A stretch of DNA of 49,320 bases from a virus (IMGVR_UViG_3300008050_000019), one strand, 5' to 3'. Positions 400-42,312 are shown, counted from the first letter of the stretch. Notes: generated from the sequence alone by a model not told the origin. A program made the numbers and translations.

Positions 400-488
400 A
401 GGAAGCGAAGGGATTCGAACCCCCAAAACGACTTGCATCGCCCTACTGGTTTTCAAAACCAGGCCCTCGTCCACCACGGACCGCTTCC
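400..488 (-). tRNA. tRNA-Ser (anticodon TGA), class II
   Basis: acceptor GGAAGCG/CGCTTCC, anticodon arm CTGGT-TTTGAAA-ACCAG, long variable arm, T arm GGGGG-TTCGAAT-CCCTT. Confidence 0.8.
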
Positions 489-531
489 ATTAAAATAATT
501 ATAACACGCATTTAAAAAAATGTACACGCAA

Positions 532-768
532 TCATTTTTTATATTTTATGATAACATTATATCCTGCTATAGAGATAAGTGACGCTATATTGAGTTCTAT
601 AGTTCTTGGTAATTCATCAATTGCAATGCAAGAAAGATATCTACTATCAGTAAAAGATAAAAAAATGATAGGGGTGAATAAGTGTTTTGCAAGCATAATA
701 TCACCAAACTTTAGATTCATAATATTATTTCTTGTAAAGGCTTGCATGCCATCATCTATCATGTTCAT
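532..768 (-). CDS. hypothetical protein (78 aa)
   Basis: ORF on cluster strand; opposite-strand ORF 548..790 looks less protein-like. Confidence 0.35.
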   Translation of the reverse strand: MNMIDDGMQAFTRNNIMNLKFGDIMLAKHLFTPIIFLSFTDSRYLSCIAIDELPRTIELNIASLISIAGYNVIIKYKK

Positions 769-840
769 GATTCATCACGCTCTTTTCTAGTATAGATTTT
801 ATATGAAAGTGTTGTTACATATATCCAAATATTCATTGCA

Positions 841-1083
841 TTAGAATGTTTTCTGGCTTATTCTTGCAAGTATTTTATGACCGATCAAAAAGCTTTTTGG
901 GAGATGTCCTATACCAGGTGATATCCACTTAAGATTTAAAAAAGCAAATTCTTTGTACGCATCATTGATATCATCATTTACAAACCCAAAAAAAACTAGC
1001 AAATTTTCGCTGTAACTTGTCTTAATAAGAATTATATCACCAATTGCCAACTCATTGAGGTTATCTTTGTCTATGATTTCCAT
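841..1083 (-). CDS. hypothetical protein (80 aa)
   Basis: six-frame ORF, cluster strand. Confidence 0.4.
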   Translation of the reverse strand: MEIIDKDNLNELAIGDIILIKTSYSENLLVFFGFVNDDINDAYKEFAFLNLKWISPGIGHLPKSFLIGHKILARISQKTF

Positions 1084-1086
1084 CTA

Positions 1087-1158
1087 TAGTGCTACCTGGT
1101 AACGCTCCAGGATTTCTGGTATGTCAAACCAGCGTTCATACTTCCCTACTATAGCACC
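1087..1158 (-). tRNA. tRNA-Val-like (anticodon GAC), non-canonical T loop AGCGTTA
   Basis: acceptor GGTGCTA/TAGCACT (G1-U72), anticodon arm CTGGT-TTGACAT-ACCAG, T arm CCTGG-AGCGTTA-CCAGG; near-identical copy at 7327..7398 differs only in anticodon arm. Confidence 0.5.
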
Positions 1159-1163
1159 AAAAT

Positions 1164-1236
1164 ACCCCCACCGAGAATCGAACTCGGGTCGCCGACGTGA
1201 AAAGCCAGTGTTCTAAACCACTAAACTATAGGGGCG
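1164..1236 (-). tRNA. tRNA-Glu (anticodon TTC)
   Basis: D arm GTTT/GAAC, anticodon loop TTTTCAC, T arm CCGAG-TTCGATT-CTCGG; G1-G72 acceptor mismatch. Confidence 0.65.
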
Positions 1237-1277
1237 TATTAAATATATTATAAATCAAGAAAAAACATTATTACATG

Positions 1278-1604
1278 CTAAAGATAACTTTCTTCGAATA
1301 AGATATCTTTATGGTTTGGACAGCGTGTACAAGAATAGTAGTTAACATGTATTAATTTACCATCGCCACCACAAATCTCACAAATTGAGCCAGATGCGTC
1401 TTCTGTACGGCAAATTAACTTAAACATTTGTGGCGTAACGCTTTTTGTGTAAAACCGCAACTCACCAAATTTTTCTTTTATTTGCGTTACGTTGCGGTTC
1501 CAGCCAAGTTTGTCTAGATCAATTATAAGCTGATCAATTATAGGCGTCCAACCTTCGCCAACGCCATAAGTATTATGGATCTTTATTCCGCTCTTATCTT
1601 TCAT
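1278..1604 (-). CDS. hypothetical protein with C-terminal CxxC...CxxC zinc-ribbon-like motif
   Basis: ORF 108 aa; CEICGG...CTRCPNH. Confidence 0.55.
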   Translation of the reverse strand: MKDKSGIKIHNTYGVGEGWTPIIDQLIIDLDKLGWNRNVTQIKEKFGELRFYTKSVTPQMFKLICRTEDASGSICEICGGDGKLIHVNYYSCTRCPNHKDILFEESYL

Positions 1605-1609
1605 TTAAA

Positions 1610-1681
1610 TTGTCCCTAGAGGACTCGAACCTCTAACGCCTGAACCAAAATCAAGTGTCTTGCCAATTAGACTAAGGGACA
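1610..1681 (-). tRNA. tRNA-Gln (anticodon TTG)
   Basis: U1-A72 acceptor TGTCCCT/AGGGACA, anticodon arm CTTGA-TTTTGGT-TCAGG, T arm AGAGG-TTCGAGT-CCTCT. Confidence 0.8.
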
Positions 1682-2092
1682 TTAATACTTTTTATTCGCG
1701 ATTGTTATATGGAAACATTTATAGTATTGCTTGGGTGGTAATGTCCATTTACTTCTAGGAAGCATGCCGAGACCAGCACGTAGCTCTGTGAGTCTATCAC
1801 ACCAAACATTAAGCCAATAATATACATTATCGAAATATACAGTCGGCTCATATTTAAATTGTACAATTTCATTATCAAATTCTCCCCAAGCTTTTAAGCA
1901 TAAAGGAGTTTCCTTAAATGGTCTTACAACTGTACAATGTGGGGGATATCTGGGCACTTGGCATTTCATATACTTTGGTATTAGTGCTCGATAATATCGC
2001 GCAATATCTTTATCTATTTCTAGATTAAGCTTTAACCCTTCATTTTGTCCAGAATATACCAACCTTCCAGTTGAAGTCAATAACTTTTTCAT
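1682..2092 (-). CDS. hypothetical protein (136 aa)
   Basis: six-frame ORF. Confidence 0.5.
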   Translation of the reverse strand: MKKLLTSTGRLVYSGQNEGLKLNLEIDKDIARYYRALIPKYMKCQVPRYPPHCTVVRPFKETPLCLKAWGEFDNEIVQFKYEPTVYFDNVYYWLNVWCDRLTELRAGLGMLPRSKWTLPPKQYYKCFHITIANKKY

Positions 2093-2096
2093 AAGA

Positions 2097-2168
2097 TGGG
2101 CCCAAAGAGAATCGAACTCTCATCATCTTGTATGTAAGACAAGCGCTTTACCGTTAAGCTATGTTCCC
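2097..2168 (-). tRNA. tRNA-Val (anticodon TAC)
   Basis: D arm GCTT/AAGC, anticodon arm CTTGT-CTTACAT-ACAAG, T loop TTCGATT; two A-G mismatches in acceptor. Confidence 0.6.
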
Positions 2169-3043
2169 TAATAAAACTCATTATTCTTTACATCGTTGTA
2201 AAGCCTTAAAGGAATCTTTGTTTTTTGTGTTTTCATGATTGGAGCATCTAGACTCCACCACCCTTTTTCGTAAACAGTCCCAAGTTGTAGAATAAATTTC
2301 TGGAGCTGTGCCTTCGACCCTCCGACAAATGCTTTATTCATAGCATTTCTAACAACAACCGCTGATCGGGCTGTTCCTGCTTGGCTTAGCGCTATATATA
2401 ATGCTTTTGTAGCTTTTACAAGATCATGTGCCCGTGGCTCAATTGTATACTGGGGTCTGGCAACAAGAACGCATGCAAAAACTTGTTCTTCTTCTATACC
2501 GAGTATTTTCAAAGCTATAATTGCAGAGTTTATCGTCTCGCCTGTTTGTAATGAATCATCGACAAGAACAATCGTTTTGCCGATATATTCTTCTGGGATG
2601 CGTTCCGACGTTGCGGTCATTATATCATCCGCTCGTTTTAAATAAGATTGCTTTTTCTTAATAGAGAGGTCCGACTTTATTGTTAAAATATCTGATGCGG
2701 TTCCGCCAAAGTCTTGCTCAAGGCGTTCGGCCAATGCATACCCCCATTTATTTTTACCTGTTGTCGAAGGAACGACAATCCATAATGGATCTTCACCCTT
2801 AAACAAAGAAAATGCATTTTTATTTTTATTATAAAGGGTCTCGAACACTTCATTTGACTGCAGCGTAGAAAGACCAGGATCATCTTTTTTTGCCTTTATA
2901 AAAGCATCAAACTGTGTCTCTGATGCTACCCCTGTAACAAGCCTGTCTTTTACAGATGAAAGCCTTGATACAGGGGCTTCTAAAATTAATGAAATAAACT
3001 CTTTTATTACACTAGTCATTGTAACTATTTGAAGATCGTCCAA
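2168..3043 (-). CDS. phosphoribosyltransferase (PRT type I) domain protein
   Basis: PRPP-binding motif TIVLVDDSLQTGET; 291 aa. Confidence 0.65.
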   Translation of the reverse strand: MDDLQIVTMTSVIKEFISLILEAPVSRLSSVKDRLVTGVASETQFDAFIKAKKDDPGLSTLQSNEVFETLYNKNKNAFSLFKGEDPLWIVVPSTTGKNKWGYALAERLEQDFGGTASDILTIKSDLSIKKKQSYLKRADDIMTATSERIPEEYIGKTIVLVDDSLQTGETINSAIIALKILGIEEEQVFACVLVARPQYTIEPRAHDLVKATKALYIALSQAGTARSAVVVRNAMNKAFVGGSKAQLQKFILQLGTVYEKGWWSLDAPIMKTQKTKIPLRLYNDVKNNEFY

Positions 3044-3575
3044 AGACCTTTTTTACGTATTTTTGTGTTTCTTCGAATGGCGGAACACCACCATGGCGCC
3101 TAACGTTTGTTGGGCCAGCATTATAAGCTGCAACCGCACTTCGCAAATCACCTGGAAACATCTTTATAAGCTTCTTTAAATATCTTGCTCCGCCGTCGAT
3201 ATTTTGTGCTGCATCCCAAGGGTCTTTAACACCTAGATACTCTGCAGTTTTTGGCATAAGCTGCATAACACCAATGGCACCCACGCCTGAATTGGCCGAG
3301 GGGTTGTATCTAGACTCAGTCCATGCCATTGCGTCAAGAATTGTGTATGGAACTTTATGCTTGATAGCAGCTTTCTTAATTAAGCTTGCAATGTCGGATT
3401 TGCTATATTCGATAGCTTGCTCTGCCTTAGGTTCCGCTGCAGAAGTATCCATGGGCCCAGATAAAGCTGCGACAGTTGCCAATCCTGCTGCGGCACGTTT
3501 TAATGGGCCTTCGTCAATTTTGCAATCCATTGACTCTTGAATCATCCCCTTGAGGTCTTTAATTGATATCTTCAT
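3012..3575 (-). CDS. lytic transglycosylase, SLT domain
   Basis: AMAWTESRYNPSANSGVGAIGVMQLMP catalytic-region motif; 32-nt overlap with downstream gene. Confidence 0.75.
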   Translation of the reverse strand: MKISIKDLKGMIQESMDCKIDEGPLKRAAAGLATVAALSGPMDTSAAEPKAEQAIEYSKSDIASLIKKAAIKHKVPYTILDAMAWTESRYNPSANSGVGAIGVMQLMPKTAEYLGVKDPWDAAQNIDGGARYLKKLIKMFPGDLRSAVAAYNAGPTNVRRHGGVPPFEETQKYVKKVFGRSSNSYND

Positions 3576-3671
3576 ATCTATATATATAAGCAGCTAACAG
3601 AATTTGCACCCATACTTTCAACTTGGCAAGCTGATATGCTACTGTTAAACATCATAGCTGCATTAATTTCA

Positions 3672-3743
3672 CATTTCTGAAGAGATTCGAACTCCCATTT
3701 CGACGTTCGTAGCGCCGCGCTCTATCCATTGAACTACAGAAAT
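3672..3743 (-). tRNA. tRNA-Arg (anticodon ACG)
   Basis: acceptor ATTTCTG/CAGAAAT, anticodon arm CGGCG-CTACGAA-CGTCG, T loop TTCGAAT. Confidence 0.8.
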
Positions 3744-3746
3744 AAA

Positions 3747-3818
3747 CACTCACAGAAAGACTCGAACTTTCACGATCAGTTTAGAAGACTGAGATGCTAT
3801 CCATTACATCATGCGAGC
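3747..3818 (-). tRNA. tRNA-Arg (anticodon TCT)
   Basis: acceptor GCTCGCA/TGTGAGT, anticodon arm TCAGT-CTTCTAA-ACTGA, T arm GAAAG-TTCGAGT-CTTTC. Confidence 0.8.
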
Positions 3819-3821
3819 ATA

Positions 3822-3895
3822 TGCCCTCGGCCGGGTTTGAACCGGCACTTTTTGGAATTTGAACCCAATGACTCTACCAGTTGGTCTACGAAGGC
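3822..3895 (-). tRNA. tRNA with Leu-type anticodon CAA but short (class I) variable arm, A73
   Basis: acceptor GCCTTCG/CGAGGGC, anticodon arm TTGGG-TTCAAAT-TCCAA, 5-nt variable loop, T arm GCCGG-TTCAAAC-CCGGC. Confidence 0.55.
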
Positions 3896-3898
3896 AAG

Positions 3899-3972
3899 TA
3901 CCCCTAGGCGGATTCGAACCGCCAACACTCAGATTTTAAATCTGATAACTCTACCAGTTGGTTTATAGGGGC
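3899..3972 (-). tRNA. tRNA with Leu-type anticodon TAA but class I architecture
   Basis: anticodon arm TCAGA-TTTAAAA-TCTGA, T arm GGCGG-TTCGAAT-CCGCC; paralog of 3822..3895. Confidence 0.55.
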
Positions 3973-4355
3973 GAAATTTGACTAACTTTTTTAAAACAAA
4001 TGCATGTATTATATCTTGATACAATTATATCAAATGCATTTGTATGTTGGTCAGTGCGTATTACAATTTCTCTTTGTATTGAAAGGTTTATATCATGAAA
4101 TATAGAGCCTGTAGCATAGAAATCAGAGTCATAGTAAGACTTATATACGCTTTTATGCTTAACAGAATAAACGCAGAGCGAGACATCTTCCGCTTCTGCG
4201 TGATCAACATATAGAACTATCATAGGCTCATCTTTCTTTATAAAATGTGTAATATAGTTTATATACTTCGGAATCTTACTTTGAACAAGCTCCATCTCTA
4301 ATTCTTGAATATCATCTTTAAGAATAACAAGATCACCAGGAATAAAATCATTCAT
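3963..4355 (-). CDS. hypothetical protein (130 aa)
   Basis: six-frame ORF. Confidence 0.5.
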   Translation of the reverse strand: MNDFIPGDLVILKDDIQELEMELVQSKIPKYINYITHFIKKDEPMIVLYVDHAEAEDVSLCVYSVKHKSVYKSYYDSDFYATGSIFHDINLSIQREIVIRTDQHTNAFDIIVSRYNTCICFKKVSQISPL

Positions 4356-4356
4356 A

Positions 4357-4431
4357 TGACACTGAAGGGATTCGAACCCATACTGTTCTGGTCCTAAACC
4401 AGATGCCTCCTACCGATTGGGCTACAGTGCC
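4357..4431 (-). tRNA. tRNA with Leu-type anticodon TAG, class I architecture
   Basis: acceptor GGCACTG/CAGTGTC, anticodon arm TCTGG-TTTAGGA-CCAGA, T loop TTCGAAT. Confidence 0.5.
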
Positions 4432-4436
4432 GAAAC

Positions 4437-4507
4437 AGGCCGCCAGGGACTCGAACCCTGATTAAAAGATTTGGAATCTTTTGTGTTACCAATTACACTA
4501 ACGTCCC
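4437..4507 (-). tRNA. tRNA-Trp (anticodon CCA)
   Basis: D arm GTGT/ACAC, anticodon arm AAAGA-TTCCAAA-TCTTT, T arm CAGGG-TTCGAGT-CCCTG; imperfect acceptor. Confidence 0.6.
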
Positions 4508-4661
4508 AGATGAATGCGGTATGATCTGACTTCGATACTCTTATGGGCATATGATCTCCATAAGGCTCTTTCTACGGTACTTTATAGGCTACCAGATTGC
4601 AGGCGTTGGAGTGAATCCTAGCATACAAAAATATAACCGCTAAGTTATACTACACATTCAA

Positions 4662-4735
4662 TGCTTTTGAGTGGACTCGAACCACCAAACACCAGACCCT
4701 CGACCTGGCCGCTTGACCGATTAGCGTACAAAAGC
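4662..4735 (-). tRNA. tRNA with Leu-type anticodon GAG, class I architecture, C33
   Basis: perfect acceptor GCTTTTG/CAAAAGC, anticodon arm CCAGG-TCGAGGG-TCTGG, T arm GGTGG-TTCGAGT-CCACT. Confidence 0.5.
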
Positions 4736-4748
4736 TCTATCATATTTA

Positions 4749-5174
4749 CTACAAGAAATCACAAGGTGGCGCAACATCTTCATGTCGGCAACCTAGCAAA
4801 TGCCCAAGTTCATGTCTTATGGTTTCTCGTTTTGCTTTATTCTGAATAAAAACTTGCCGAAAGATTATTTTTCTGTTGTGTCTTGTTATCATTATACAAC
4901 CATAATATCCACACCTTCGTGGGAGTGTGTTTACGAATGCTACCGGCACAAGATCATCACTGTCATTGCAAAAAGGAGAAATTTTAAAAACTTTTTCTTT
5001 CATCTTCCTATTCCAGAAAATAACTTCTTCTTCAAAAGGCTTAAGTTTCTTGCTTGGTATATCATCTATAAACAAGCATACTGGAAAAATTCCCCCTTCT
5101 CTTACTTTTAAGTCTATTACTGTTTTGCAACTTAATAATGAAATTATTACCAATGTTAACAATACTTTCTTCAT
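4749..5174 (-). CDS. metzincin-like zinc metallopeptidase, predicted lipoprotein
   Basis: HELGHLLGCRHE (HExxHxxGxxH); N-terminal signal MKKVLLTLVIISLLSC with lipobox-like LLSC. Confidence 0.6.
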   Translation of the reverse strand: MKKVLLTLVIISLLSCKTVIDLKVREGGIFPVCLFIDDIPSKKLKPFEEEVIFWNRKMKEKVFKISPFCNDSDDLVPVAFVNTLPRRCGYYGCIMITRHNRKIIFRQVFIQNKAKRETIRHELGHLLGCRHEDVAPPCDFL

Positions 5175-5202
5175 ACTACTAATTATAGTAGCTTAATCTA
5201 AA

Positions 5203-5275
5203 AGGGCAAAGCGAGACTTGAACTCGCGACCAATCGGTTAACAACCGACCGTTCTAACCACTGAACTATTCACCC
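5203..5275 (-). tRNA. tRNA-Asn (anticodon GTT)
   Basis: D arm GTTC/GAAC, anticodon arm GTCGG-TTGTTAA-CCGAT, T arm GCGAG-TTCAAGT-CTCGC. Confidence 0.8.
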
Positions 5276-5364
5276 GATCGAGGGGGAATTATTCCCCCTC
5301 TTTTGTTATCCTTGCTTAACCTTCATATTTCTTCCTCCGGAAAATAATATCTCTATTATTTAAG

Positions 5365-5439
5365 CCCCCCGTATGAGATTCGAACTCATGATCTCTGCGG
5401 TGACAACGCAACGTCCACTCCTGACTGGACCGACGGGGG
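5365..5439 (-). tRNA. tRNA-Asp (anticodon GTC)
   Basis: perfect acceptor CCCCCGT/ACGGGGG, anticodon arm TTGCG-TTGTCAC-CGCAG, T arm ATGAG-TTCGAAT-CTCAT. Confidence 0.8.
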
Positions 5440-5540
5440 AAATAAAATTTTATTTGGTCGATGGCCCGGCAATCGCGAGCTTGCCAGTTTGACCCCAAAG
5501 CAGAGTCCGGTAACAGCCTTATCTCTCTGGTGCACATCGA

Positions 5541-5615
5541 TCTAGACGGCAGGGCTTGAACCTGCAAAAAACCTGACACGGAATCAGGCGCCACACCAAA
5601 TTTGTGGTCGTCTAG
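5541..5615 (-). tRNA. tRNA-like, possibly Arg (anticodon CCG); atypical
   Basis: perfect acceptor CTAGACG/CGTCTAG, anticodon arm CCTGA-TTCCGTG-TCAGG (pyrimidine 37), T arm GCAGG-TTCAAGC-CCTGC, shifted D arm. Confidence 0.4.
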
Positions 5616-5626
5616 TTAAAATCAAC

Positions 5627-5700
5627 TCTGGGCAAAGGGATTCGAACCCCTGTTCTCACGGTCCCAAACCGCGTGTGATACCAAACTTCACCATACCCAG
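5627..5700 (-). tRNA. tRNA-Pro (anticodon TGG)
   Basis: acceptor CTGGGTA/TGCCCAG, anticodon arm CGCGG-TTTGGGA-CCGTG, T loop TTCGAAT. Confidence 0.8.
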
Positions 5701-5704
5701 TGAA

Positions 5705-5791
5705 TTTGAAGAGTGGGATTCGAACCGCACATTTCCGACCCTTCTCGGCCGTGAGACAGGATTGGCGTGTTACCGCTAACACTATCTTTAA
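5705..5791 (-). tRNA. degenerate tRNA-like element (class II length), anticodon not assignable
   Basis: TTCGAAT T-loop signature and D arm GTGT/ACAC present but T stem and anticodon stem do not pair cleanly. Confidence 0.3.
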
Positions 5792-5794
5792 TTA

Positions 5795-5873
5795 CCCGTA
5801 TAGCGGGATTTGAACCCACGTCTTCGCCACCCCTTAGAGGCCGAACGATGTTTTACCCTTAAACTACCAACGG
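5795..5873 (-). tRNA. degenerate tRNA-like element, anticodon not assignable
   Basis: T arm GTGGG-TTCAAAT-CCCGC and D arm GTTT/AAAC; acceptor with 2 mismatches, no clean anticodon stem. Confidence 0.3.
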
Positions 5874-5878
5874 ATAAA

Positions 5879-5961
5879 TGAATGAGGAGGGAGTTGAACC
5901 CCCAAAGACCGAAGCCGGGTCGTTTACAGCGACTTGATTTTACCAATAACCATACTCATCC
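5879..5961 (-). tRNA. tRNA-Tyr (anticodon GTA), class II
   Basis: acceptor GGATGAG/CTCATTC, anticodon loop CTGTAAA, variable-arm hairpin CCG-GCTT-CGG, T arm GGGGG-TTCAACT-CCCTC. Confidence 0.65.
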
Positions 5962-6079
5962 AAAAAAGTAAAGATAGGTCTTTCACCTATATCTTCCCCC
6001 TCATACGGGAGCTGTTCTATTTTAAACTACTTTACTACGCTTATAACATACATCATTACCACTATATGTTATAAACAAT

Positions 6080-6150
6080 TGCGGATCCCAGACTTGCACT
6101 GGGCCCTGTGGCTTATGAGGCCACCGAGGTACCTATATCCTCCAATCCGC
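6080..6150 (-). tRNA. tRNA-Met-like (anticodon CAT), non-canonical T loop TGCAAGT
   Basis: acceptor GCGGAT/ATCCGC, anticodon arm GTGGC-CTCATAA-GCCAC, T arm CCCAG-TGCAAGT-CTGGG. Confidence 0.5.
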
Positions 6151-6219
6151 GTCAATGGTTTTAATGAGATCCGAAAACTCCATATTGGTCCCGCCGATGA
6201 TTAAAAAAGCTAAACCCAC

Positions 6220-6591
6220 TCAGGAACTTGGAAAGATAACGCTTTCGACATATACCTTCAAAAAATCTGATTTATCATCGTTATCATAGCCCCCTCTCGG
6301 AAACCCAAAACTCCTTGATAAAAGATATTTCTTAGTAACTAGTCCTGGTTCAAACTGTCCCTCAAAACCATAACATGAACAGTGTCCACCCCGATTCAGG
6401 AACAATTTGTCTGTCTTTCTTTCTCTCAATACAAACCAAGATCCAGAATCACACCCCCAGGAACCTTCATGTTGGTATGCAATTAAAATTTTGAAGCGGT
6501 TAAGCTCTGCCAATGTAATATCATAATCTCCACAAATTTGTTCTTTTACTTCGTCTTTCGACATTCCTTCATAATCAGCTAACAATAACAT
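6220..6591 (-). CDS. hypothetical protein (123 aa) inside tRNA block
   Basis: six-frame ORF, protein-like composition. Confidence 0.5.
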   Translation of the reverse strand: MLLLADYEGMSKDEVKEQICGDYDITLAELNRFKILIAYQHEGSWGCDSGSWFVLRERKTDKLFLNRGGHCSCYGFEGQFEPGLVTKKYLLSRSFGFPRGGYDNDDKSDFLKVYVESVIFPSS

Positions 6592-6650
6592 AACAAACCC
6601 TCCGTATTATACAGAAATGCTTAGCGTTTGCTATATACTATTAACTAAAA

Positions 6651-6725
6651 TCCCCCCACCAGGACTCGAACCTGGAACCTCCGGCTTAAAAGGCCATTGC
6701 ACTAATCCAGTTGTGCTATGGAGGG
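6651..6725 (-). tRNA. tRNA-Lys (anticodon TTT)
   Basis: acceptor CCCTCCA/TGGGGGG, D arm GCAC/GTGC, anticodon loop CTTTTAA, T arm CCAGG-TTCGAGT-CCTGG. Confidence 0.7.
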
Positions 6726-6726
6726 T

Positions 6727-6799
6727 TTATAAGGGAAGAATTCGAATCTTCATTTCCCGCTTTAATCGTGCGGGTGTACTACCATTATACTACCTTATG
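6727..6799 (-). tRNA. tRNA-like with C1-A72 mismatch and 9-nt anticodon loop ACGATTAAA; identity ambiguous
   Basis: T arm GAAGA-TTCGAAT-TCTTC, D arm GTAT/GTAC, anticodon stem CCCGC/GCGGG around a 9-nt loop containing TTA. Confidence 0.4.
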
Positions 6800-6952
6800 G
6801 TTGTCATATGAAGAGTTTATACTTCAATTCCTCAATCCAAATGAGGCGCGATATTTTCACCAATATGACGATTTTAGATATTAACCTAGGCTATGAACCT
6901 ATATCCAATGCAACACTGCTATTGCAAAGGCCGGAATATATTTAATATCTAA

Positions 6953-7027
6953 TGGGATTACCGGGATTCGAACCCGGATCTGTCCGATTAAGAGTCGGCT
7001 ATATTAACACATTAATACTATAATCCC
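6953..7027 (-). tRNA. tRNA-Lys (anticodon CTT)
   Basis: perfect acceptor GGGATTA/TAATCCC, anticodon loop CTCTTAA, T arm CCGGG-TTCGAAT-CCCGG. Confidence 0.7.
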
Positions 7028-7078
7028 AATTTACATTTTATTCAATTTTCAAAGAAACAAATCACAAAATGATTTGAA

Positions 7079-7163
7079 TGAGGAACCTGAGGATCGAACT
7101 CAGTTGCACCCTAAGGCGACCAGGTTTACAGCCTGGGTTATCTCCATAATAATCTAGTTCCCC
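7079..7163 (-). tRNA. tRNA-Tyr (anticodon GTA), second diverged copy, class II
   Basis: acceptor GGGGAAC/GTTCCTC, anticodon arm CCAGG-CTGTAAA-CCTGG, long variable arm, T arm CTGAG-TTCGATC-CTCAG. Confidence 0.55.
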
Positions 7164-7252
7164 GTAATCATGAATGGCTTTAATCATCCAGTGTGTAGTT
7201 ATTATAACTCATTAGTTATCAAATTACAACATTTTTAAATTTTATTTTCATA

Positions 7253-7324
7253 AGATTGAGATGAGACTCGAACTCACAATCTTGGTTTTGCAGACCAAAG
7301 CCTTAACCATTTAGCTACTCAATC
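7253..7324 (-). tRNA. tRNA-Cys (anticodon GCA)
   Basis: perfect acceptor GATTGAG/CTCAATC, anticodon arm TTGGT-CTGCAAA-ACCAA, T arm GTGAG-TTCGAGT-CTCAT. Confidence 0.8.
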
Positions 7325-7326
7325 GA

Positions 7327-7398
7327 TGGTGCTACCTGGTAACGCTCCAGGATCTTCTGTTTATCAGACAGACGTTCATACTTCCCTACTATAGCACC
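7327..7398 (-). tRNA. tRNA-Ile-like (anticodon GAT), non-canonical T loop AGCGTTA
   Basis: same body as 1087..1158 (acceptor GGTGCTA/TAGCACC, T arm CCTGG-AGCGTTA-CCAGG) but anticodon arm TCTGT-CTGATAA-ACAGA. Confidence 0.5.
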
Positions 7399-7402
7399 AA
7401 AA

Positions 7403-7474
7403 CGCTTTTTAGTGGATTCGAACCACTACATCTGGTACTTCACACCAGCATGCTACCGTTAACATCAAAAAAGC
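7403..7474 (-). tRNA. tRNA-Phe (anticodon GAA)
   Basis: perfect acceptor GCTTTTT/AAAAAGC, D arm ATGT/GCAT, anticodon arm CTGGT-GTGAAGT-ACCAG, T arm AGTGG-TTCGAAT-CCACT. Confidence 0.8.
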
Positions 7475-7724
7475 ATAAATCCTATTACAACTAACTAGCC
7501 TTTTGGGCCTGTAATTGGCACCCGTTCTCTCAGCGGGTGTTATATTAACGAATGTTAATACATCCTCTAGCCAGCAGCTTAATTAAAAGCAGGATATTTC
7601 TCGCAATCAAGGTCTAGCGATGGTTTCGACCCATCTTCTGCACCCACTGCAGGTGTGCCGTAATACTTCTATACGAGCTAGACTTATTTCTTTTATATTT
7701 TCTTCCAATTTTTATGTAACATTA

Positions 7725-7793
7725 TGGAGAAGACGGGTAACGCTCCCGCTCATTCCGGTGTGCAAAACCAGATGCTATCCTTATAGCTTCCCC
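7725..7793 (-). tRNA. tRNA-Ala-like (anticodon TGC), short D arm, T loop AGCGTTA
   Basis: acceptor GGGGAAG/CTTCTCC, anticodon arm CTGGT-TTTGCAC-ACCGG, T arm GCGGG-AGCGTTA-CCCGT. Confidence 0.5.
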
Positions 7794-7797
7794 AATA

Positions 7798-7871
7798 AGC
7801 AAGTAAGGGGATTCGAACCCCTACATCAAGAGTGGAAATCTTGCATGCTATCCATTAAACATCATACTCGC
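7798..7871 (-). tRNA. tRNA-Gly (anticodon TCC)
   Basis: acceptor GCGAGTA/TACTTGC, D arm ATGT/GCAT, anticodon arm CAAGA-TTTCCAC-TCTTG, T arm AGGGG-TTCGAAT-CCCCT, U73. Confidence 0.8.
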
Positions 7872-7968
7872 ATACTCGATTTTGTTTTAACCTCATCATG
7901 TTAAATAATTATATAACATTTTTTTTCATTTAACACTTAATTTAAAACAAAATTGAAATTCTTATTCT

Positions 7969-8154
7969 TTAATCAGCAAACTTGTGAATGTTCCCACCCA
8001 CCTTCGTAACCATATTCTGAATGAACTCAGCACGCCCCAGAGCCCGCCAAGCAATTTTTAGTTCATCATCAATACGCTGGGTTGCATCCTTGATGGTTTC
8101 CTTTAACTTTCTAAAAGACTCTTCCATCTCTTGGTCAGTTTGATCATTACTCAT
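7969..8154 (-). CDS. hypothetical small protein (61 aa)
   Basis: six-frame ORF between tRNA genes. Confidence 0.35.
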   Translation of the reverse strand: MSNDQTDQEMEESFRKLKETIKDATQRIDDELKIAWRALGRAEFIQNMVTKVGGNIHKFAD

Positions 8155-8201
8155 AATTTATTTTATCACCTATAATATCCAATGACATATTTTATTTTTA
8201 A

Positions 8202-8288
8202 CGGAAGGCAGAAGGATTGAACTCCATCCACTTTTAAGAACCCACTGATTAGCAAACAGCGACCAGAACCAATCTGGTATTACCTTCC
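8202..8288 (-). tRNA. tRNA-Ser (anticodon GCT), class II
   Basis: acceptor GGAAGGT/GCCTTCC, D arm CCAG-ATTGGTT-CTGG, anticodon loop TTGCTAA, long variable arm. Confidence 0.65.
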
Positions 8289-8293
8289 AAAAG

Positions 8294-8407
8294 TTACGTT
8301 ACCAGGAGTCGAACCTGGCTTGTCAACCAGACACCAGATGAAAACATCTTGAATGGATTCGAACCACTATTACTCGCGCGCAGAGTATATACCGACTTAC
8401 TAACGTA
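8294..8407 (-). tRNA. irregular or nested tRNA-like locus (two T-arm signatures inside one perfect 7-bp acceptor pairing)
   Basis: TACGTTA (8401..8407) pairs perfectly with TAACGTA next to T arm CCAGG-TTCGACT-CCTGG (8302..8318); a second T arm AGTGG-TTCGAAT-CCATT lies between. Confidence 0.3.
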
Positions 8408-8413
8408 ACCAGA

Positions 8414-8486
8414 GGTACTCGAAGGGGATTGAACCCTCATCGTTCGGACCACAGCCGAAAGCTCTAACCATTGAGCTACGAGCACC
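8414..8486 (-). tRNA. tRNA-His (anticodon GTG) with genome-encoded G-1
   Basis: acceptor GTGCTCG/CGAGTAC preceded by G, D arm GCTC/GAGC, anticodon arm TTCGG-CTGTGGT-CCGAA, T arm GAGGG-TTCAATC-CCCTT. Confidence 0.8.
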
Positions 8487-8491
8487 ATAAA

Positions 8492-8563
8492 AGCCTGCGA
8501 GAGGAATTCAACCCCCATTTCTTGATTACAAAACAAGAGTAATAAGCATTATACTACACAGGC
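8492..8563 (-). tRNA. tRNA-Thr (anticodon TGT)
   Basis: acceptor GCCTGTG/CGCAGGC, anticodon loop TTTGTAA, T loop TTGAATT (G56). Confidence 0.6.
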
Positions 8564-8896
8564 ATTATTATTTATCTTTGTTGTGTTTATATTATAAAGC
8601 GAAATTTTCACTTTAACACATAAAATAAATATAAATTTTTCTTTTATTCAATTTTCAAATAACTCTTCCAACCTCTTTCAAGGCCTAAAGGTTACTTGAA
8701 AGAGGGCAGGAAACTAGGTTGGTAGTTTTGTACCTTGCGCTGTCTTATCACTTACACGCAAAAAGTGAATGGGATTAGTTAAATAGTCCCATCTTTCATT
8801 TGCGCAAATTTTAATATGATTATACATAGCAGTTTTAACCTTCGTTGTGATTAATATATACCACTAGGAAAAAGCTTTGTTCAATAAAAAATGATT

Positions 8897-11196: not shown

Positions 11197-12078
11197 ATGT
11201 TTAATCGTAAGAACACTCAGAGAAGAAATATAGCATTGATAATGTGTTTGTTCACATTCAGTATTGCATGCAGTAATGTACCAAACTGCGCTAGCATTAA
11301 TATTGCCCCACAAATCGCCGCAGTTCATGACACAAAAAATCTCCCCTTCAATTCTTTTGTCACTGTCAGAAGTAAGACTTTTGAGCGGACATGCACACCA
11401 TCGTTGGCGTTAACAAGCACAGCAGCAGATGTATGCCCGATAAATATTAGAATAGCTTCTGCATCTGGTGTCGTGATTTACAAATCAATACATGATACTG
11501 GCGTTGCATACGTCCTAACAGCAAAGCATATGTGTAATACCAAGCAAGAGATTAAAGGAGACGTAATAAACCATCAATTTGTAATTAAAGATTTCAACTA
11601 TGATTCGTATGAAGCGCTATCATTTGTAAAGTCTGATGCATCGGATTCTTGTATATTGATATTTGCGCACTCGCCCGATTGGATGCAGCCAGTTGAAATC
11701 ACAGAAACTGAACCATCACTTGGTGAGCGTGTATTTAATTTAGCAGCGCCAGAAAGTATGTCTGCGAAACAAACGATGATGGTCTTTGAAGGGTTCTACT
11801 CAGGTATATATGAAGACTACCATATATTTACTCTGCCGGCGTCACAAGGGTCATCTGGTTCACCGATTTTCAATAAAGAAAATCAACTTGTTGGAATGAT
11901 TTTTGCCGTTCCAACAAGTTTAAAAGACGAAAGACTGGGCGACAGTTCAACAAGAGTTACTAAACAAACTATGGAAAATTTAGCATATGCTGTAGGCATC
12001 GATGATATCAAAGCGCTTGTTACCGTACTAGTAGACGTCGATGCTAATATAGACATCGGCAGCATAGAAAAGAATTAA
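11197..12078 (+). CDS. secreted trypsin-like (S1) serine protease, predicted lipoprotein
   Basis: His motif VLTAKHM, Ser motif GSSGSPIF, N-terminal signal ending FSIAC. Confidence 0.75.
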   Translation: MFNRKNTQRRNIALIMCLFTFSIACSNVPNCASINIAPQIAAVHDTKNLPFNSFVTVRSKTFERTCTPSLALTSTAADVCPINIRIASASGVVIYKSIHDTGVAYVLTAKHMCNTKQEIKGDVINHQFVIKDFNYDSYEALSFVKSDASDSCILIFAHSPDWMQPVEITETEPSLGERVFNLAAPESMSAKQTMMVFEGFYSGIYEDYHIFTLPASQGSSGSPIFNKENQLVGMIFAVPTSLKDERLGDSSTRVTKQTMENLAYAVGIDDIKALVTVLVDVDANIDIGSIEKN

Positions 12079-12629
12079 CGTCTACCCAATACCCTCTTTT
12101 GATATTTCTTCATCTTCCGAAGCAGAATATCACGCTTCACCCTCGAAAGTCTATCAAAAAATAGCTTGCCATCCAAATGATCAATTTCATGTTGTAAGCA
12201 GCATGAAAGCAGGCCAAAAGCTTCAACCTCAATATTTTCGCCATTCTCATTTAAGCCCTGAACTTTAATATACGTTGAACGCTCAACCTTACCTGATTGT
12301 CCAGGGACCGACATACAACGCTCAGTCCATATAGATGAGCCTCGGGATTCAACAAGCTTCGGGTTTACGATTGCCAAGCGTCCATGGCTCTTGACGTTGC
12401 TGGTGTCTTCACCATCAGCATCAAGAGGCTCAACATCAACGACAATGACACGCTCAGTCCTTCCAACTTGTGTCGCAGCGAGGCCAATTGAGCCGTGTTG
12501 ATCAATAGTATGAAACATATCTTCGATCAGTTTTCGTGTACTGTCATTAACAACCCCTACTGCCTGTGACGGTACGCGAAGTAATTTATTAGGAGCTTTA
12601 ATAACATGAAGCAATGTAGGATTATTCAT
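12075..12629 (-). CDS. def: peptide deformylase
   Basis: GLAATQVG, CMSVPG and HEIDHLDG motifs; convergent 4-nt overlap with protease gene. Confidence 0.85.
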   Translation of the reverse strand: MNNPTLLHVIKAPNKLLRVPSQAVGVVNDSTRKLIEDMFHTIDQHGSIGLAATQVGRTERVIVVDVEPLDADGEDTSNVKSHGRLAIVNPKLVESRGSSIWTERCMSVPGQSGKVERSTYIKVQGLNENGENIEVEAFGLLSCCLQHEIDHLDGKLFFDRLSRVKRDILLRKMKKYQKRVLGRR

Positions 12630-28527: not shown

Positions 28528-28530
28528 TTA

Positions 28531-28589
28531 GTCGAAACGGGTTTAACCCGTCACTTGGGAGTTCCTTCCCAGGTCTGATGAGACAGGAG
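28531..28589 (+). ncRNA. hammerhead ribozyme, type II (HH1); predicted cleavage after C28552
   Basis: GUC-GAAA-[ACGGG-uuuaa-CCCGU]-C|A-[CUUGGGA-guuccu-UCCCAGG]-U-CUGAUGA-GAC-AGGAG; 3' AGGA can pair loop-I UCCU. Confidence 0.8.
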
Positions 28590-28594
28590 CATAG

Positions 28595-34392: not shown

Positions 34393-34483
34393 TGTTGGAA
34401 GCTGTCTTAAACTGAGTGGAACGCCGTATTGACGCTATTGGTGGCATGAGTTGCAGAGCATGTCCAATTTAAAATCGGCTGCA

Positions 34484-34540
34484 TTCGAAACGCCCTAAGG
34501 GCGTCATGTTGGGTGACCTCCAACGTCTGATGAGATAGGT
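34484..34540 (+). ncRNA. hammerhead ribozyme, type II (HH3); predicted cleavage after C34505
   Basis: GAAA-[ACGCCC-uaa-GGGCGU]-C|A then sequence identical to HH2 from stem I onward; stem III differs by compensatory changes. Confidence 0.75.
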
Positions 34541-34552
34541 CAAGGAGAAGTT

Positions 34553-40313: not shown

Positions 40314-40403
40314 ATGAAAGGCGGAATTAAAATGAAGAAAACCTGACGATCTTGACTTTAATAAATAAATGCAAAACTGGGAATTAAGAAACGGAAAGAA
40401 AAA

Positions 40404-40460
40404 GCCGAAACGCTGAGAAGCGTCTGCTAAGACTAACCCCTTGGCACTGATGAGGCAGGT
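40404..40460 (+). ncRNA. hammerhead ribozyme, type II (HH4); predicted cleavage after C40424
   Basis: GCC-GAAA-[CGCU-gaga-AGCG]-UC|U-[GCUAAG..UUGGC]-A-CUGAUGA-GGC-AGGU. Confidence 0.7.
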
Positions 40461-40569
40461 AAATAAATTAATTACCTTGTTTCAATTGAATTAAGAATGT
40501 AATAATATATTCTTACAAACGGGGATTGGAAATTCCCCCTCAACATTCAAAAGAAAGCAATAACCAATT

Positions 40570-41214: not shown

Positions 41215-41228
41215 GCCGAAAGGGCTAA

Positions 41229-41287
41229 GCCGAAACCCCCTCGGGGGTTATCCTAGGGTTACCTCCTAGGGTCTGATGAGGCAGGTT
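41229..41287 (+). ncRNA. hammerhead ribozyme, type II (HH5); predicted cleavage after GUU at 41249
   Basis: GCC-GAAA-[CCCCC-ucg-GGGGG]-UU|A-[UCCUAGGG-uuaccu-CCUAGGGU]-CUGAUGA-GGC-AGGU. Confidence 0.7.
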
Positions 41288-41309
41288 CCCTCCCTATTCT
41301 TAGGAAAAC

Positions 41310-41549: not shown

Positions 41550-41750
41550 ATGAGTAAAATGTACATTGTTGTTGACCAAACTACACCCAAAGATGTGGTG
41601 GCCTTAGCAACGGGTGACCAAATTGAAGCAGAAGAATATGCGGTCAAGTATGACCCAAGCCACTTCAACATGCGAATCATTTGCCTTTCACCAGGTGACA
41701 CCATCGTTCCAGGTGCTAATGAACGCTTCCCGGGTAAAGTAATTTTCTAA
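41550..41750 (+). CDS. hypothetical protein (66 aa)
   Basis: six-frame ORF. Confidence 0.45.
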   Translation: MSKMYIVVDQTTPKDVVALATGDQIEAEEYAVKYDPSHFNMRIICLSPGDTIVPGANERFPGKVIF

Positions 41751-41810
41751 GTCGAAACGGGCTTCGGCCCGTCGTTCTGGAATGACTCCCAGGGCCTGAT
41801 GAGACAAGTC
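41751..41810 (+). ncRNA. hammerhead ribozyme, type II (HH6); predicted cleavage after C41773
   Basis: GUC-GAAA-[CGGGC-uucg-GCCCG]-UC|G-[UUCUGG..CCAGGGC]-CUGAUGA-GAC-AAGUC; AAGUC pairs loop-I GACU. Confidence 0.8.
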
Positions 41811-41836
41811 TTAACCTTAAACAAAACGAGAACTTT

Positions 41837-42016: not shown

Positions 42017-42240
42017 AGCAGTCTAATTCAAGCGATTTCATCTTCTGGGCGGCTGCAGCAGCCACCATTGGGTCCGCTTGTTTATCAATCGGGTTTGTGT
42101 TAGGTAACCTTTGGTTAAGCCTAAGCTTCGGCGCAAGTGCATTGAAGGCTTTCACCAAAGGATGTGACAGAACGTACACCATTGAAAAATATGTCAGTGG
42201 TGATTGGTTCTGCGAAGCGAAAACCCCCTACACACGATAA
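42013..42240 (+). CDS. small predicted membrane protein (75 aa)
   Basis: two hydrophobic segments. Confidence 0.45.
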   Translation: MKQSNSSDFIFWAAAAATIGSACLSIGFVLGNLWLSLSFGASALKAFTKGCDRTYTIEKYVSGDWFCEAKTPYTR

Positions 42241-42301
42241 GTCGAAACGGGCTTCGGCCCGTCATTCTGGTCTAACCTCCAGAATCTGATGAGACAGGTT
42301 A
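42241..42301 (+). ncRNA. hammerhead ribozyme, type II (HH7); predicted cleavage after C42263
   Basis: GUC-GAAA-[CGGGC-uucg-GCCCG]-UC|A-[AUUCUGG-ucuaaccu-CCAGAAU]-CUGAUGA-GAC-AGGUUA; AGGUUA pairs loop-I UAACCU. Confidence 0.8.
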
Positions 42302-42312
42302 AAGGAAGCAAG

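Follow-up and report, generated by a model that had tools for sequence, protein, structure and literature searches.

A stretch of viral DNA of 49,320 nucleotides (nt) (IMGVR_UViG_3300008050_000019), referred to here as a whole as the window, carries within a minus-strand block of transfer RNA (tRNA) genes four genes that have the leucine anticodons CAA, TAA, TAG and GAG and the length of class I tRNAs. Judging from their sequences, we consider it quite probable that the four genes encode functional leucine tRNAs whose short-arm (class-I-length) form is widespread, most likely charged by the host's leucyl-tRNA synthetase (LeuRS). The short leucine form is ordinary in this setting, being common in phage tRNA clusters and present in some bacterial chromosomes. 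For the window itself this matters little, and tRNA-Leu is a well-founded annotation for all four genes. More broadly, nearly half of the leucine tRNAs in the sampled phage clusters are armless, as are chromosomal genes of Actinomycetota, which would confirm, in nature and on a large scale, that bacterial LeuRS is independent of the long variable arm, and short leucine tRNAs offer ready natural substrates for studying the purpose of that arm.

Structure and family membership of the four short genes

The block and the four genes are located as follows (coordinates are those of the window).

400..8563, minus strand: whole tRNA block (ARAGORN, Rfam and model search)
3822..3895, minus strand: tRNA-Leu(CAA), 74 nt (ARAGORN; RF00005, 53.8 bits)
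3899..3972, minus strand: tRNA-Leu(TAA), 74 nt (ARAGORN; RF00005, 57.3 bits)
4357..4431, minus strand: tRNA-Leu(TAG), 75 nt (ARAGORN; RF00005, 58.0 bits)
4662..4735, minus strand: tRNA-Leu(GAG), 74 nt (ARAGORN; RF00005, 51.6 bits)

An earlier note on this DNA had placed four genes with these anticodons at these positions and had proposed a check with ARAGORN; the program returned the same coordinates and anticodons, and Rfam agrees. The matches to RF00005 span model positions 1-71 of 71 in every case, at 51.6-58.0 bits (E values of about 1e-9 to 1e-10) against a gathering threshold of 29 bits. The note had also read variable loops of 4-5 nt in place of the long arm, and the loops are indeed 5 nt long in all four genes (AAAGU in the CAA gene, GUGUU in TAA, ACAGU in TAG and UGUUU in GAG), without the long arm of class II tRNAs. 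All four have a complete acceptor stem of 7 base pairs (bp), a canonical T-loop, A14, A15 together with U48, and G18G19, whereas none encodes the CCA end. A73, which the note had seen in two of the genes, is in fact present in all four.

The D-arms of three of the genes follow one design, with a 3-bp stem, 13/22 unpaired and the loop AAYYGGUAG(G)A. They read GAC-C-AACUGGUAGA-GUC in Leu(CAA) and AAC-C-AACUGGUAGA-GUU in Leu(TAA), each of 17 nt, and GCC-C-AAUCGGUAGGA-GGC in Leu(TAG), of 18 nt. The D-loop of Leu(GAG), in a D-arm of 17 nt, is AAUCGGUCAA, with a C after U20 where the other three have A. Position 37 is A in both readers of UUR codons and G in both readers of CUN codons, which matches the pattern in Escherichia coli, where tRNA-Leu species reading UUR have A37 and those reading CUN have G37. 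Individual departures are few: Leu(TAA) has a G1-U72 pair and A36A37A38, Leu(TAG) has, besides its G37, a T stem with a single U-U mismatch, and Leu(GAG), the most divergent of the four, combines G37 with C33, the single C33 that the earlier note had pointed out. Single-sequence folding, a weakly informative method, gave a cloverleaf as the minimum-free-energy (MFE) structure of Leu(CAA) and Leu(TAA) (z -4.1 for the latter).

The fold is also supported by comparison across phages. An almost gap-free alignment (A1) of 27 distinct short leucine tRNAs, four from the window and the remainder drawn from IMG/VR and from cultured phages, was scored on a cloverleaf with a 3-bp D stem; its loci came partly from a search with a D-arm motif, which leaves the other stems unconstrained. 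Of its cells 97.4% are paired, and compensatory changes occur in 19 of the 20 pairs. The covariation score of 0.92 compares with 0.22 for shuffled alignments and with no more than 0.18 when the partners are slid, and none of 500 shuffles reached 0.92. A14, A15 and U48 are invariant both in this alignment and in alignment A3. When a covariance model (R1) was built from 25 short leucine tRNAs, with the window sequences excluded, the four genes were hits 1-4 of the block, at 88.3 bits (TAA), 81.4 bits (CAA), 74.3 bits (TAG) and 58.7 bits (GAG), ahead of the best non-leucine tRNA, Lys(TTT), at 51.0 bits. Assignment of the short D-arms to nearest neighbours by edit distance was uninformative, as variation in the stem dominates; it was replaced by a D-arm table and the R1 model.

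Short leucine tRNAs in phages and bacterial chromosomes

The earlier note considered such genes odd for a phage, a view that a wider sample does not bear out. IMG/VR was scanned for two adjacent canonical T-arms, with no leucine criterion, which gave 120 loci with 1235 tRNAs called by ARAGORN; tRNAs of 78 nt or less were counted as short. In this sample 50 of the 110 leucine tRNAs (~45%) are short, as opposed to none of 96 serine and one of 51 tyrosine tRNAs. Short and long leucine tRNAs have much the same core: A73 is found in 48/50 and 58/60, respectively, and the combination of A73, A14A15 and U48 in 46/50 and 55/60, compared with 117/937 of the other short tRNAs. Likewise, the D stem is of 3 bp in 46/50 short leucine tRNAs, the same distribution as in the long ones, whereas that of other short tRNAs is mostly of 4 bp. 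Because both the identity trio and the D stem are shared, the short form has the D-arm design of long tRNA-Leu and is missing the long arm only. Both forms co-occur in 16 of the viral loci. A separate motif scan of IMG/VR gave 13 loci, 12 of which contain short leucine tRNAs. One IMG/VR phage locus (L006) has, beside short leucine genes, calls of only 72 nt for Tyr(GTA) and Ser(GCT) (3584-3655 and 7630-7701); if the calls are right, these would be rare armless cases of the other two class II isotypes.

Records of cultured phages give the same picture. Phages of Mycobacterium, Streptomyces, Gordonia, Rhodococcus, Lactobacillus, Myxococcus, Pseudomonas, Vibrio and Escherichia, as well as cyanophages, have full-length ungapped BLAST matches that bear the annotation tRNA-Leu. 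Vibrio phage KVP40 has tRNA-Leu-1 and tRNA-Leu-2, each 77 nt long with the CCA end counted; Escherichia phage vB_EcoM_ESCO50 (Felixounavirus) has three short leucine genes of 77-79 nt adjoining a serine gene of 90 nt and a tyrosine gene of 88 nt; and Synechococcus phage S-CRM01 and Xanthomonas phage X1 have one short leucine gene each, of 75 and 74 nt. Like the genes of the window, the short tRNA-Leu of these and other cultured phages, with those of Mycobacterium, Streptomyces, Gordonia and Lactobacillus among the carriers, are 74-76 nt long before the CCA, have variable loops of 4-7 nt, A73, A14A15, U48, leucine anticodons and a D-arm of the form N-AAYYGGYAGA with a 3-bp stem, and lie in tRNA clusters in which serine and tyrosine tRNAs keep their long arms. 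The identity between the two groups is ~75-87% over parts of the tRNA. They differ in that several cultured phages encode the CCA end, which is absent from the leucine genes of the window, and in that the window carries four isoacceptors that jointly cover all six leucine codons. As cultured-phage records have long annotated such short genes as tRNA-Leu, the four genes are further members of a known form.

Other tRNA arrays with short leucine tRNAs were found in a metagenome scan; one of them (L027) has the same four leucine anticodons, on tRNAs that match those of the window at 43-49 of 74-75 positions. No exact match to the D-arm of Leu(GAG) was found in IMG/VR. Within the open-access literature, to which the search was confined, we found no paper on short-arm leucine tRNAs in phages or bacteria, and reviews and a structural paper of 2025 continue to place bacterial tRNA-Leu in type II (class II).

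The form is also present in bacterial chromosomes. A scan with the short-leucine motif over one genome per bacterial species gave at least 120 loci (L156-L274, for example L177:6515-6589, L182:3340-3416 and L194:2884-2958), and the statements on these loci that follow apply to the matches listed. They comprise 66 short leucine tRNAs, mostly with the anticodon TAA or CAA, and 50 ordinary tRNA-Trp. Many of the short leucine genes are the sole tRNA in an 8-kb stretch of an Actinomycetota isolate genome (among them Bifidobacterium, Salinispora, Actinomadura, Frankia, Nocardioides and Nesterenkonia); other bacteria carry them as single chromosomal genes as well, and further ones lie within large tRNA arrays of bacterial assemblies. 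In Bifidobacterium the gene adjoins pyruvate kinase and in Salinispora it has an AsnC-type regulator on one side and an ANTAR response regulator on the other, contexts that are housekeeping and not prophage. The tRNA-Leu(CAA/UAA) of Actinomycetota share with the window genes the length class, the D-arm motif (CCAAYYGGTAGAG in Actinomycetota), A73 and a variable loop, here NCAGU, although each stands alone among housekeeping genes and the window genes belong to a phage tRNA cluster. Since such genes are present on Actinomycetota chromosomes and in E. coli and Vibrio phages, short leucine tRNAs must be encountered by the LeuRS of diverse bacteria.

Leucine identity, decoding and alternative readings

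The elements retained by the four tRNAs are those on which bacterial LeuRS is known to rely. The determinants for the E. coli enzyme are A73, A15-U48, G18G19, A20a and tertiary contacts of the D-loop with the T-loop, and leucylation in E. coli is uncorrelated with the sequence or fold of the long arm, which is typical of tRNA-Leu, yet no determinant for this enzyme; variants without the long arm and the anticodon arm are still active (PMC9976931). The same source summarizes that E. coli tRNA-Leu engineered to have no variable arm is still a LeuRS substrate as long as A73 and the D/T-loop tertiary contacts are intact (Asahara et al. 1993, 1998; Larkin et al. 2002; summarized in PMC9976931). Those molecules were laboratory constructs, whereas the window genes are natural and evolutionarily maintained. 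Animal mitochondrial tRNA-Leu also lacks the long variable arm, with identity resting on A73 and A14 (PMC9976931); it differs from the window tRNAs, which have canonical bacterial elbows, in its reduced or irregular D- and T-loops and its dedicated LeuRS. The D-arm of E. coli leuX and leuZ (MG1655), GCG-A-AAUCGGUAGA-CGC, is colinear with those of the CAA, TAA and TAG genes of the window, and these E. coli tRNAs share A73, A14, A15-U48, G18G19 and the T-loop with them, but they are 85-87 nt long with a stem-loop variable arm, the place of which is taken in the window genes by 5 unpaired nucleotides.

The four genes have kept the core of bacterial class II tRNA-Leu, with a 5-nt variable loop replacing the arm. 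Bacterial LeuRS reads the retained core elements, the anticodon and the long arm being dispensable, and because the elements that it reads are present, the host LeuRS should charge the four tRNAs with leucine. Once expressed and used by the ribosome, as we presume they are, the anticodons UAA, CAA, UAG and GAG would jointly read all six leucine codons, and as part of a near-complete phage set these tRNAs could allow phage translation to continue independently of the host tRNA pool. The phage itself uses all six types of leucine codon, each at 11-25% of its leucine codons.

The other class II isotypes of the block serve as an internal control for the loss of the leucine arm. Its serine (89 and 87 nt) and two tyrosine (85 nt) tRNAs keep long arms, which fits the known dependence of the corresponding synthetases on the arm, namely that of seryl-tRNA synthetase (PMC9976931, PMC12360207) and of bacterial tyrosyl-tRNA synthetase (PMC12360207).

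Several observations weigh against our interpretation. According to structural and mutational work, Arg811 of the E. coli LeuRS and Arg921 of the Mycobacterium tuberculosis LeuRS contact nucleotide 47h of the variable arm, a contact judged important by the authors (PMC3561953), so that leucylation without the arm may be less efficient. Leu(GAG) is the weakest member of the set, with C33, a C in the place of A20a, a possible fourth D-stem pair (13/22), an MFE structure that is not a cloverleaf and a lead of only 7.7 bits over the best non-leucine tRNA under R1. In addition, a scan of the block for sigma-70 promoter-like sequences did no better than chance.

The earlier note had left two options for the four tRNAs: unusual leucine tRNAs charged without the arm, with which the identity elements agree, or tRNAs of a different identity. 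The second option, by which the four tRNAs would recode leucine codons, we regard as exceedingly improbable. The missing class II arm is the single feature that points to it, and there are precedents in the yeast mitochondrial tRNA-Thr(UAG) and in allo-tRNAs that place serine at leucine codons (PMC7609411). However, the four genes have the leucine determinants (apart from the C at the A20a place in GAG) and lack those of other identities: there is no G3-U70 (alanine), no long arm with G73 (serine) and no set of anticodon bases suited to a synthetase that reads the anticodon, the anticodons being sense leucine ones. They also group with the short leucine tRNAs of many phages that infect hosts with the standard code. 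Furthermore, in the peptide deformylase encoded in the window, leucine codons of all six types fall on columns, those of the GLAA and HEIDHL motifs included, that are conserved as leucine or hydrophobic in solved deformylases; leucine codons of this phage therefore mean leucine. A further reading, that some or all of the four genes are non-functional relics or decoys giving tRNA-shaped transcripts unused in translation, seems very improbable to us. Many degenerate tRNA-like sequences do occur in the block, and the C33, atypical D-loop and non-cloverleaf MFE of Leu(GAG) would suit decay, yet all four genes have complete acceptor stems, canonical T-loops and the leucine identity elements (apart from the C at the A20a place in GAG), they score well above the 25-37 bits of the degenerate elements against RF00005, and there is strong compensatory covariation within their family, whose members come from unrelated phages. 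The C33 itself, in place of the near-universal U33, is better understood as a selected state than as decay because it recurs in Leu(GAG) of other phages: it is found in 7 of 19 distinct Leu(GAG) sequences in the fetched loci compared with 37 of 1268 non-leucine tRNAs (Fisher ~1e-6, relatedness ignored), the listed carriers besides the window being L010, L024, L025, L029, L030, L034 and L100.

Functional leucine tRNAs of the short type raise the question of whether phages shed the leucine arm to escape tRNA-targeting defences. It has been proposed that phage tRNAs evade anticodon nucleases through changes in the anticodon loop (PMC10264068), an idea that the recurrence of C33 fits but does not prove. 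By extension, the loss of the arm could be adaptive, with the short shape and the C33 of Leu(GAG) escaping a host defence that recognizes class II tRNAs or the leucine anticodon loop; the tRNAs would still be charged with leucine, and leucine decoding would go on after the host leucine tRNAs had been destroyed. This would extend our interpretation of the four genes, and we give it a small chance. The high frequency of short leucine tRNAs in phage clusters, the enrichment of C33 and the published proposal are all consistent with it, as are the tRNAs with altered elbows in the same block (described below) and the reported selective cutting of type II tRNAs by mammalian Schlafen nucleases. Against this, a bacterial nuclease specific for the class II shape was not identified in this analysis, 16 viral loci carry long and short leucine tRNAs together, the enrichment statistics ignore sequence relatedness, and the chromosomal short genes beside housekeeping genes would suit neutral tolerance by LeuRS equally well, the arm being possibly a part whose loss bacterial LeuRS tolerates. 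Broader still, and with a slim chance in our estimation, the whole block might be a defence-proof translation kit that includes the leucine arm loss, the C33 of Leu(GAG) and the altered elbow of isoleucine, valine and alanine tRNAs; each departure would have been selected for removing a feature seen by a tRNA-cleaving immune nuclease of the host, with charging and decoding left intact.

The tRNA block and its surroundings

The window has a GC content of 42% and mostly small open reading frames (ORFs); in addition to the peptide deformylase it encodes a trypsin-like protease, a lytic transglycosylase and a phosphoribosyltransferase-like protein. Its appearance is that of an accessory part of a large, uncultured phage. 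When 3600-8600 was compared by megablast with 50,697 phage records, there was no near match, and the distant protein matches of the window were to Pseudomonas jumbo phages only. Relatives were sought because the conservation of the four-gene leucine set was to be tested: protein-based locus searches with ORF 3966-4355 and ORF 1685-2092 returned zero loci, and a search with the transglycosylase ORF returned four, none with tRNAs.

With default settings, ARAGORN called 26 tRNA genes, each of them within the block and on the minus strand, and a search with RF00005 confirmed most of them; Rfam added 6953-7027 (Lys CTT, 55.8 bits), 5795-5873, 6802-6869 and 5966-6036. The earlier count of about 33 tRNA or tRNA-like genes in one minus-strand block corresponds exactly to the 33 found at the relaxed threshold of ARAGORN (-ps90), 26 of the genes being firm, and still weaker tRNA-like remnants emerged in the search with the short-leucine covariance model. 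The G-1 that the note had seen encoded in tRNA-His is present and paired with C73. Scattered between the tRNA genes there are also small minus-strand ORFs. Besides the four leucine genes, the block contains the following elements.

400..488, minus strand: tRNA-Ser(TGA), 89 nt, long variable arm kept (ARAGORN; Rfam tRNA-Sec model, 50.9 bits)
1086..1159, minus strand: tRNA-Val(GAC)-like, altered elbow, T-loop AGCGUUA (ARAGORN; RF00005, 36.6 bits)
1163-1235, minus strand: tRNA-Glu
1610-1681, minus strand: tRNA-Gln
2097-2168, minus strand: tRNA-Val(TAC)
3671-3744 and 3746-3819, minus strand: tRNA-Arg, two genes
4435-4508, minus strand: tRNA-Trp
5203-5275, minus strand: tRNA-Asn
5364-5439, minus strand: tRNA-Asp
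5627-5700, minus strand: tRNA-Pro
5878..5962, minus strand: tRNA-Tyr(GTA), 85 nt, long arm kept (ARAGORN; RF00005, 39.1 bits)
6079-6151, minus strand: tRNA-Met
6651-6725, minus strand: tRNA-Lys(TTT)
6953-7027, minus strand: tRNA-Lys(CTT) (Rfam, score as above)
7079..7163, minus strand: second tRNA-Tyr(GTA), 85 nt, long arm kept (ARAGORN)
7253-7324, minus strand: tRNA-Cys
7325..7399, minus strand: tRNA-Ile(GAT), altered elbow (ARAGORN; RF00005, 42.7 bits)
7402-7475, minus strand: tRNA-Phe
7726..7795, minus strand: tRNA-Ala(TGC)-like, altered elbow (ARAGORN -ps80; motif search)
7798-7871, minus strand: tRNA-Gly
8202..8288, minus strand: tRNA-Ser(GCT)-like, 87 nt, long arm kept (ARAGORN -ps90; Rfam tRNA-Sec model, 31.2 bits, below the gathering score)
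8412..8486, minus strand: tRNA-His(GTG), encoded G-1 paired with C73 (ARAGORN; RF00005, 61.5 bits)
8492-8563, minus strand: tRNA-Thr
3589-3661, 5794-5874, 5966-6036, 6727-6799, 6798-6870, 7611-7683 and 8305-8397, minus strand: weak or odd tRNA-like elements
5541-5615 and 5705-5791, minus strand: further irregular or degenerate tRNA-like elements

The match of 400-488 to the tRNA-Sec model is due to the long arm of Ser(TGA). The element at 6727-6799 (minus strand) is called Asn(ATT), yet has either G33 or a 9-nt anticodon loop; the other irregular elements have poor stems or no settled anticodon.

Three tRNA-like genes of the block, Val(GAC), Ile(GAT) and Ala(TGC), have the T-arm GGAGCGUUACC in common. 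Its T-loop reads A54 G55 C56 G57 U58 U59 A60 in place of the usual U54 U55 C56 R57 A58, so that positions 54 and 58 are swapped and U55 is replaced; a variant, AUCGUUA, also occurs. In the D-loops of the three genes, AAG replaces the usual GG context. Outside the anticodon arm, Ile(GAT) at 7325-7399 is a near-duplicate of 1086-1159, and it is the sole Ile(GAT) called by ARAGORN in the window. An IMG/VR scan for the altered T-arm followed by an encoded ACCA gave at least 120 loci; loci with the altered elbow outside the window are L275-L393, L113, L121 and L394:3001-3074. Among the matches listed, 83 altered-elbow tRNAs were recognized by ARAGORN. The D-loop GG is present in 9/83 of these as opposed to 1074/1090 canonical tRNAs of the same loci, and the D-loop motif A(A/U)AG in 71/83 as opposed to 45/1090. 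The anticodons are enriched for Ile (27), CAT (13), Val (9), Lys (8) and Tyr (6), and for only six of the 83 is there a canonical tRNA nearby that has the same anticodon. In an alignment of 28 altered-elbow tRNAs the pairing is 96.9%, with a covariation score of 1.02 compared with 0.24 for shuffles. In Xanthomonas phage X1 a canonical Ile(GAT) adjoins an altered one with the T-loop AUCGUUA, and both are annotated as tRNA-Ile. No paper on this class of tRNA was found in the open-access literature.

The peptide deformylase gene, at 12075-12629 on the minus strand, adjoins the tRNA block (Pfam PF01327, E 2e-44; PDB matches at ~1e-32) and is a second kind of translation-related gene beside the tRNAs. 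Between tRNA-Gln and tRNA-Val, ORF 1682-2092 (minus strand, 136 amino acids) contains two H-x-T-x motifs (HCTV and HITI) that recall 2H phosphoesterases and LigT-type RNA ligases. Its sole match is PHROG 12204 (unknown function), and searches against Pfam and PDB sequences gave no match; as a guess, it may encode a 2H phosphoesterase.

On the plus strand, Rfam gave six matches to type II hammerhead ribozymes, at 37.7-40.8 bits (gathering score 37).

28530-28592, plus strand: hammerhead
34483-34544, plus strand: hammerhead
40403-40464, plus strand: hammerhead
41228-41290, plus strand: hammerhead
41750-41814, plus strand: hammerhead
42240-42303, plus strand: hammerhead

Type II hammerheads associated with phages were described by Perreault et al. 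2011 (PMC3088659). In both of the hammerhead alignments inspected here, the catalytic core CGAAAC...GUC...CUGAUGA is intact. Each of the six, spread over 28.5 to 42.3 kb, occupies a space that separates small ORFs of the plus strand, as if the ribozymes were to cut a polycistronic transcript.

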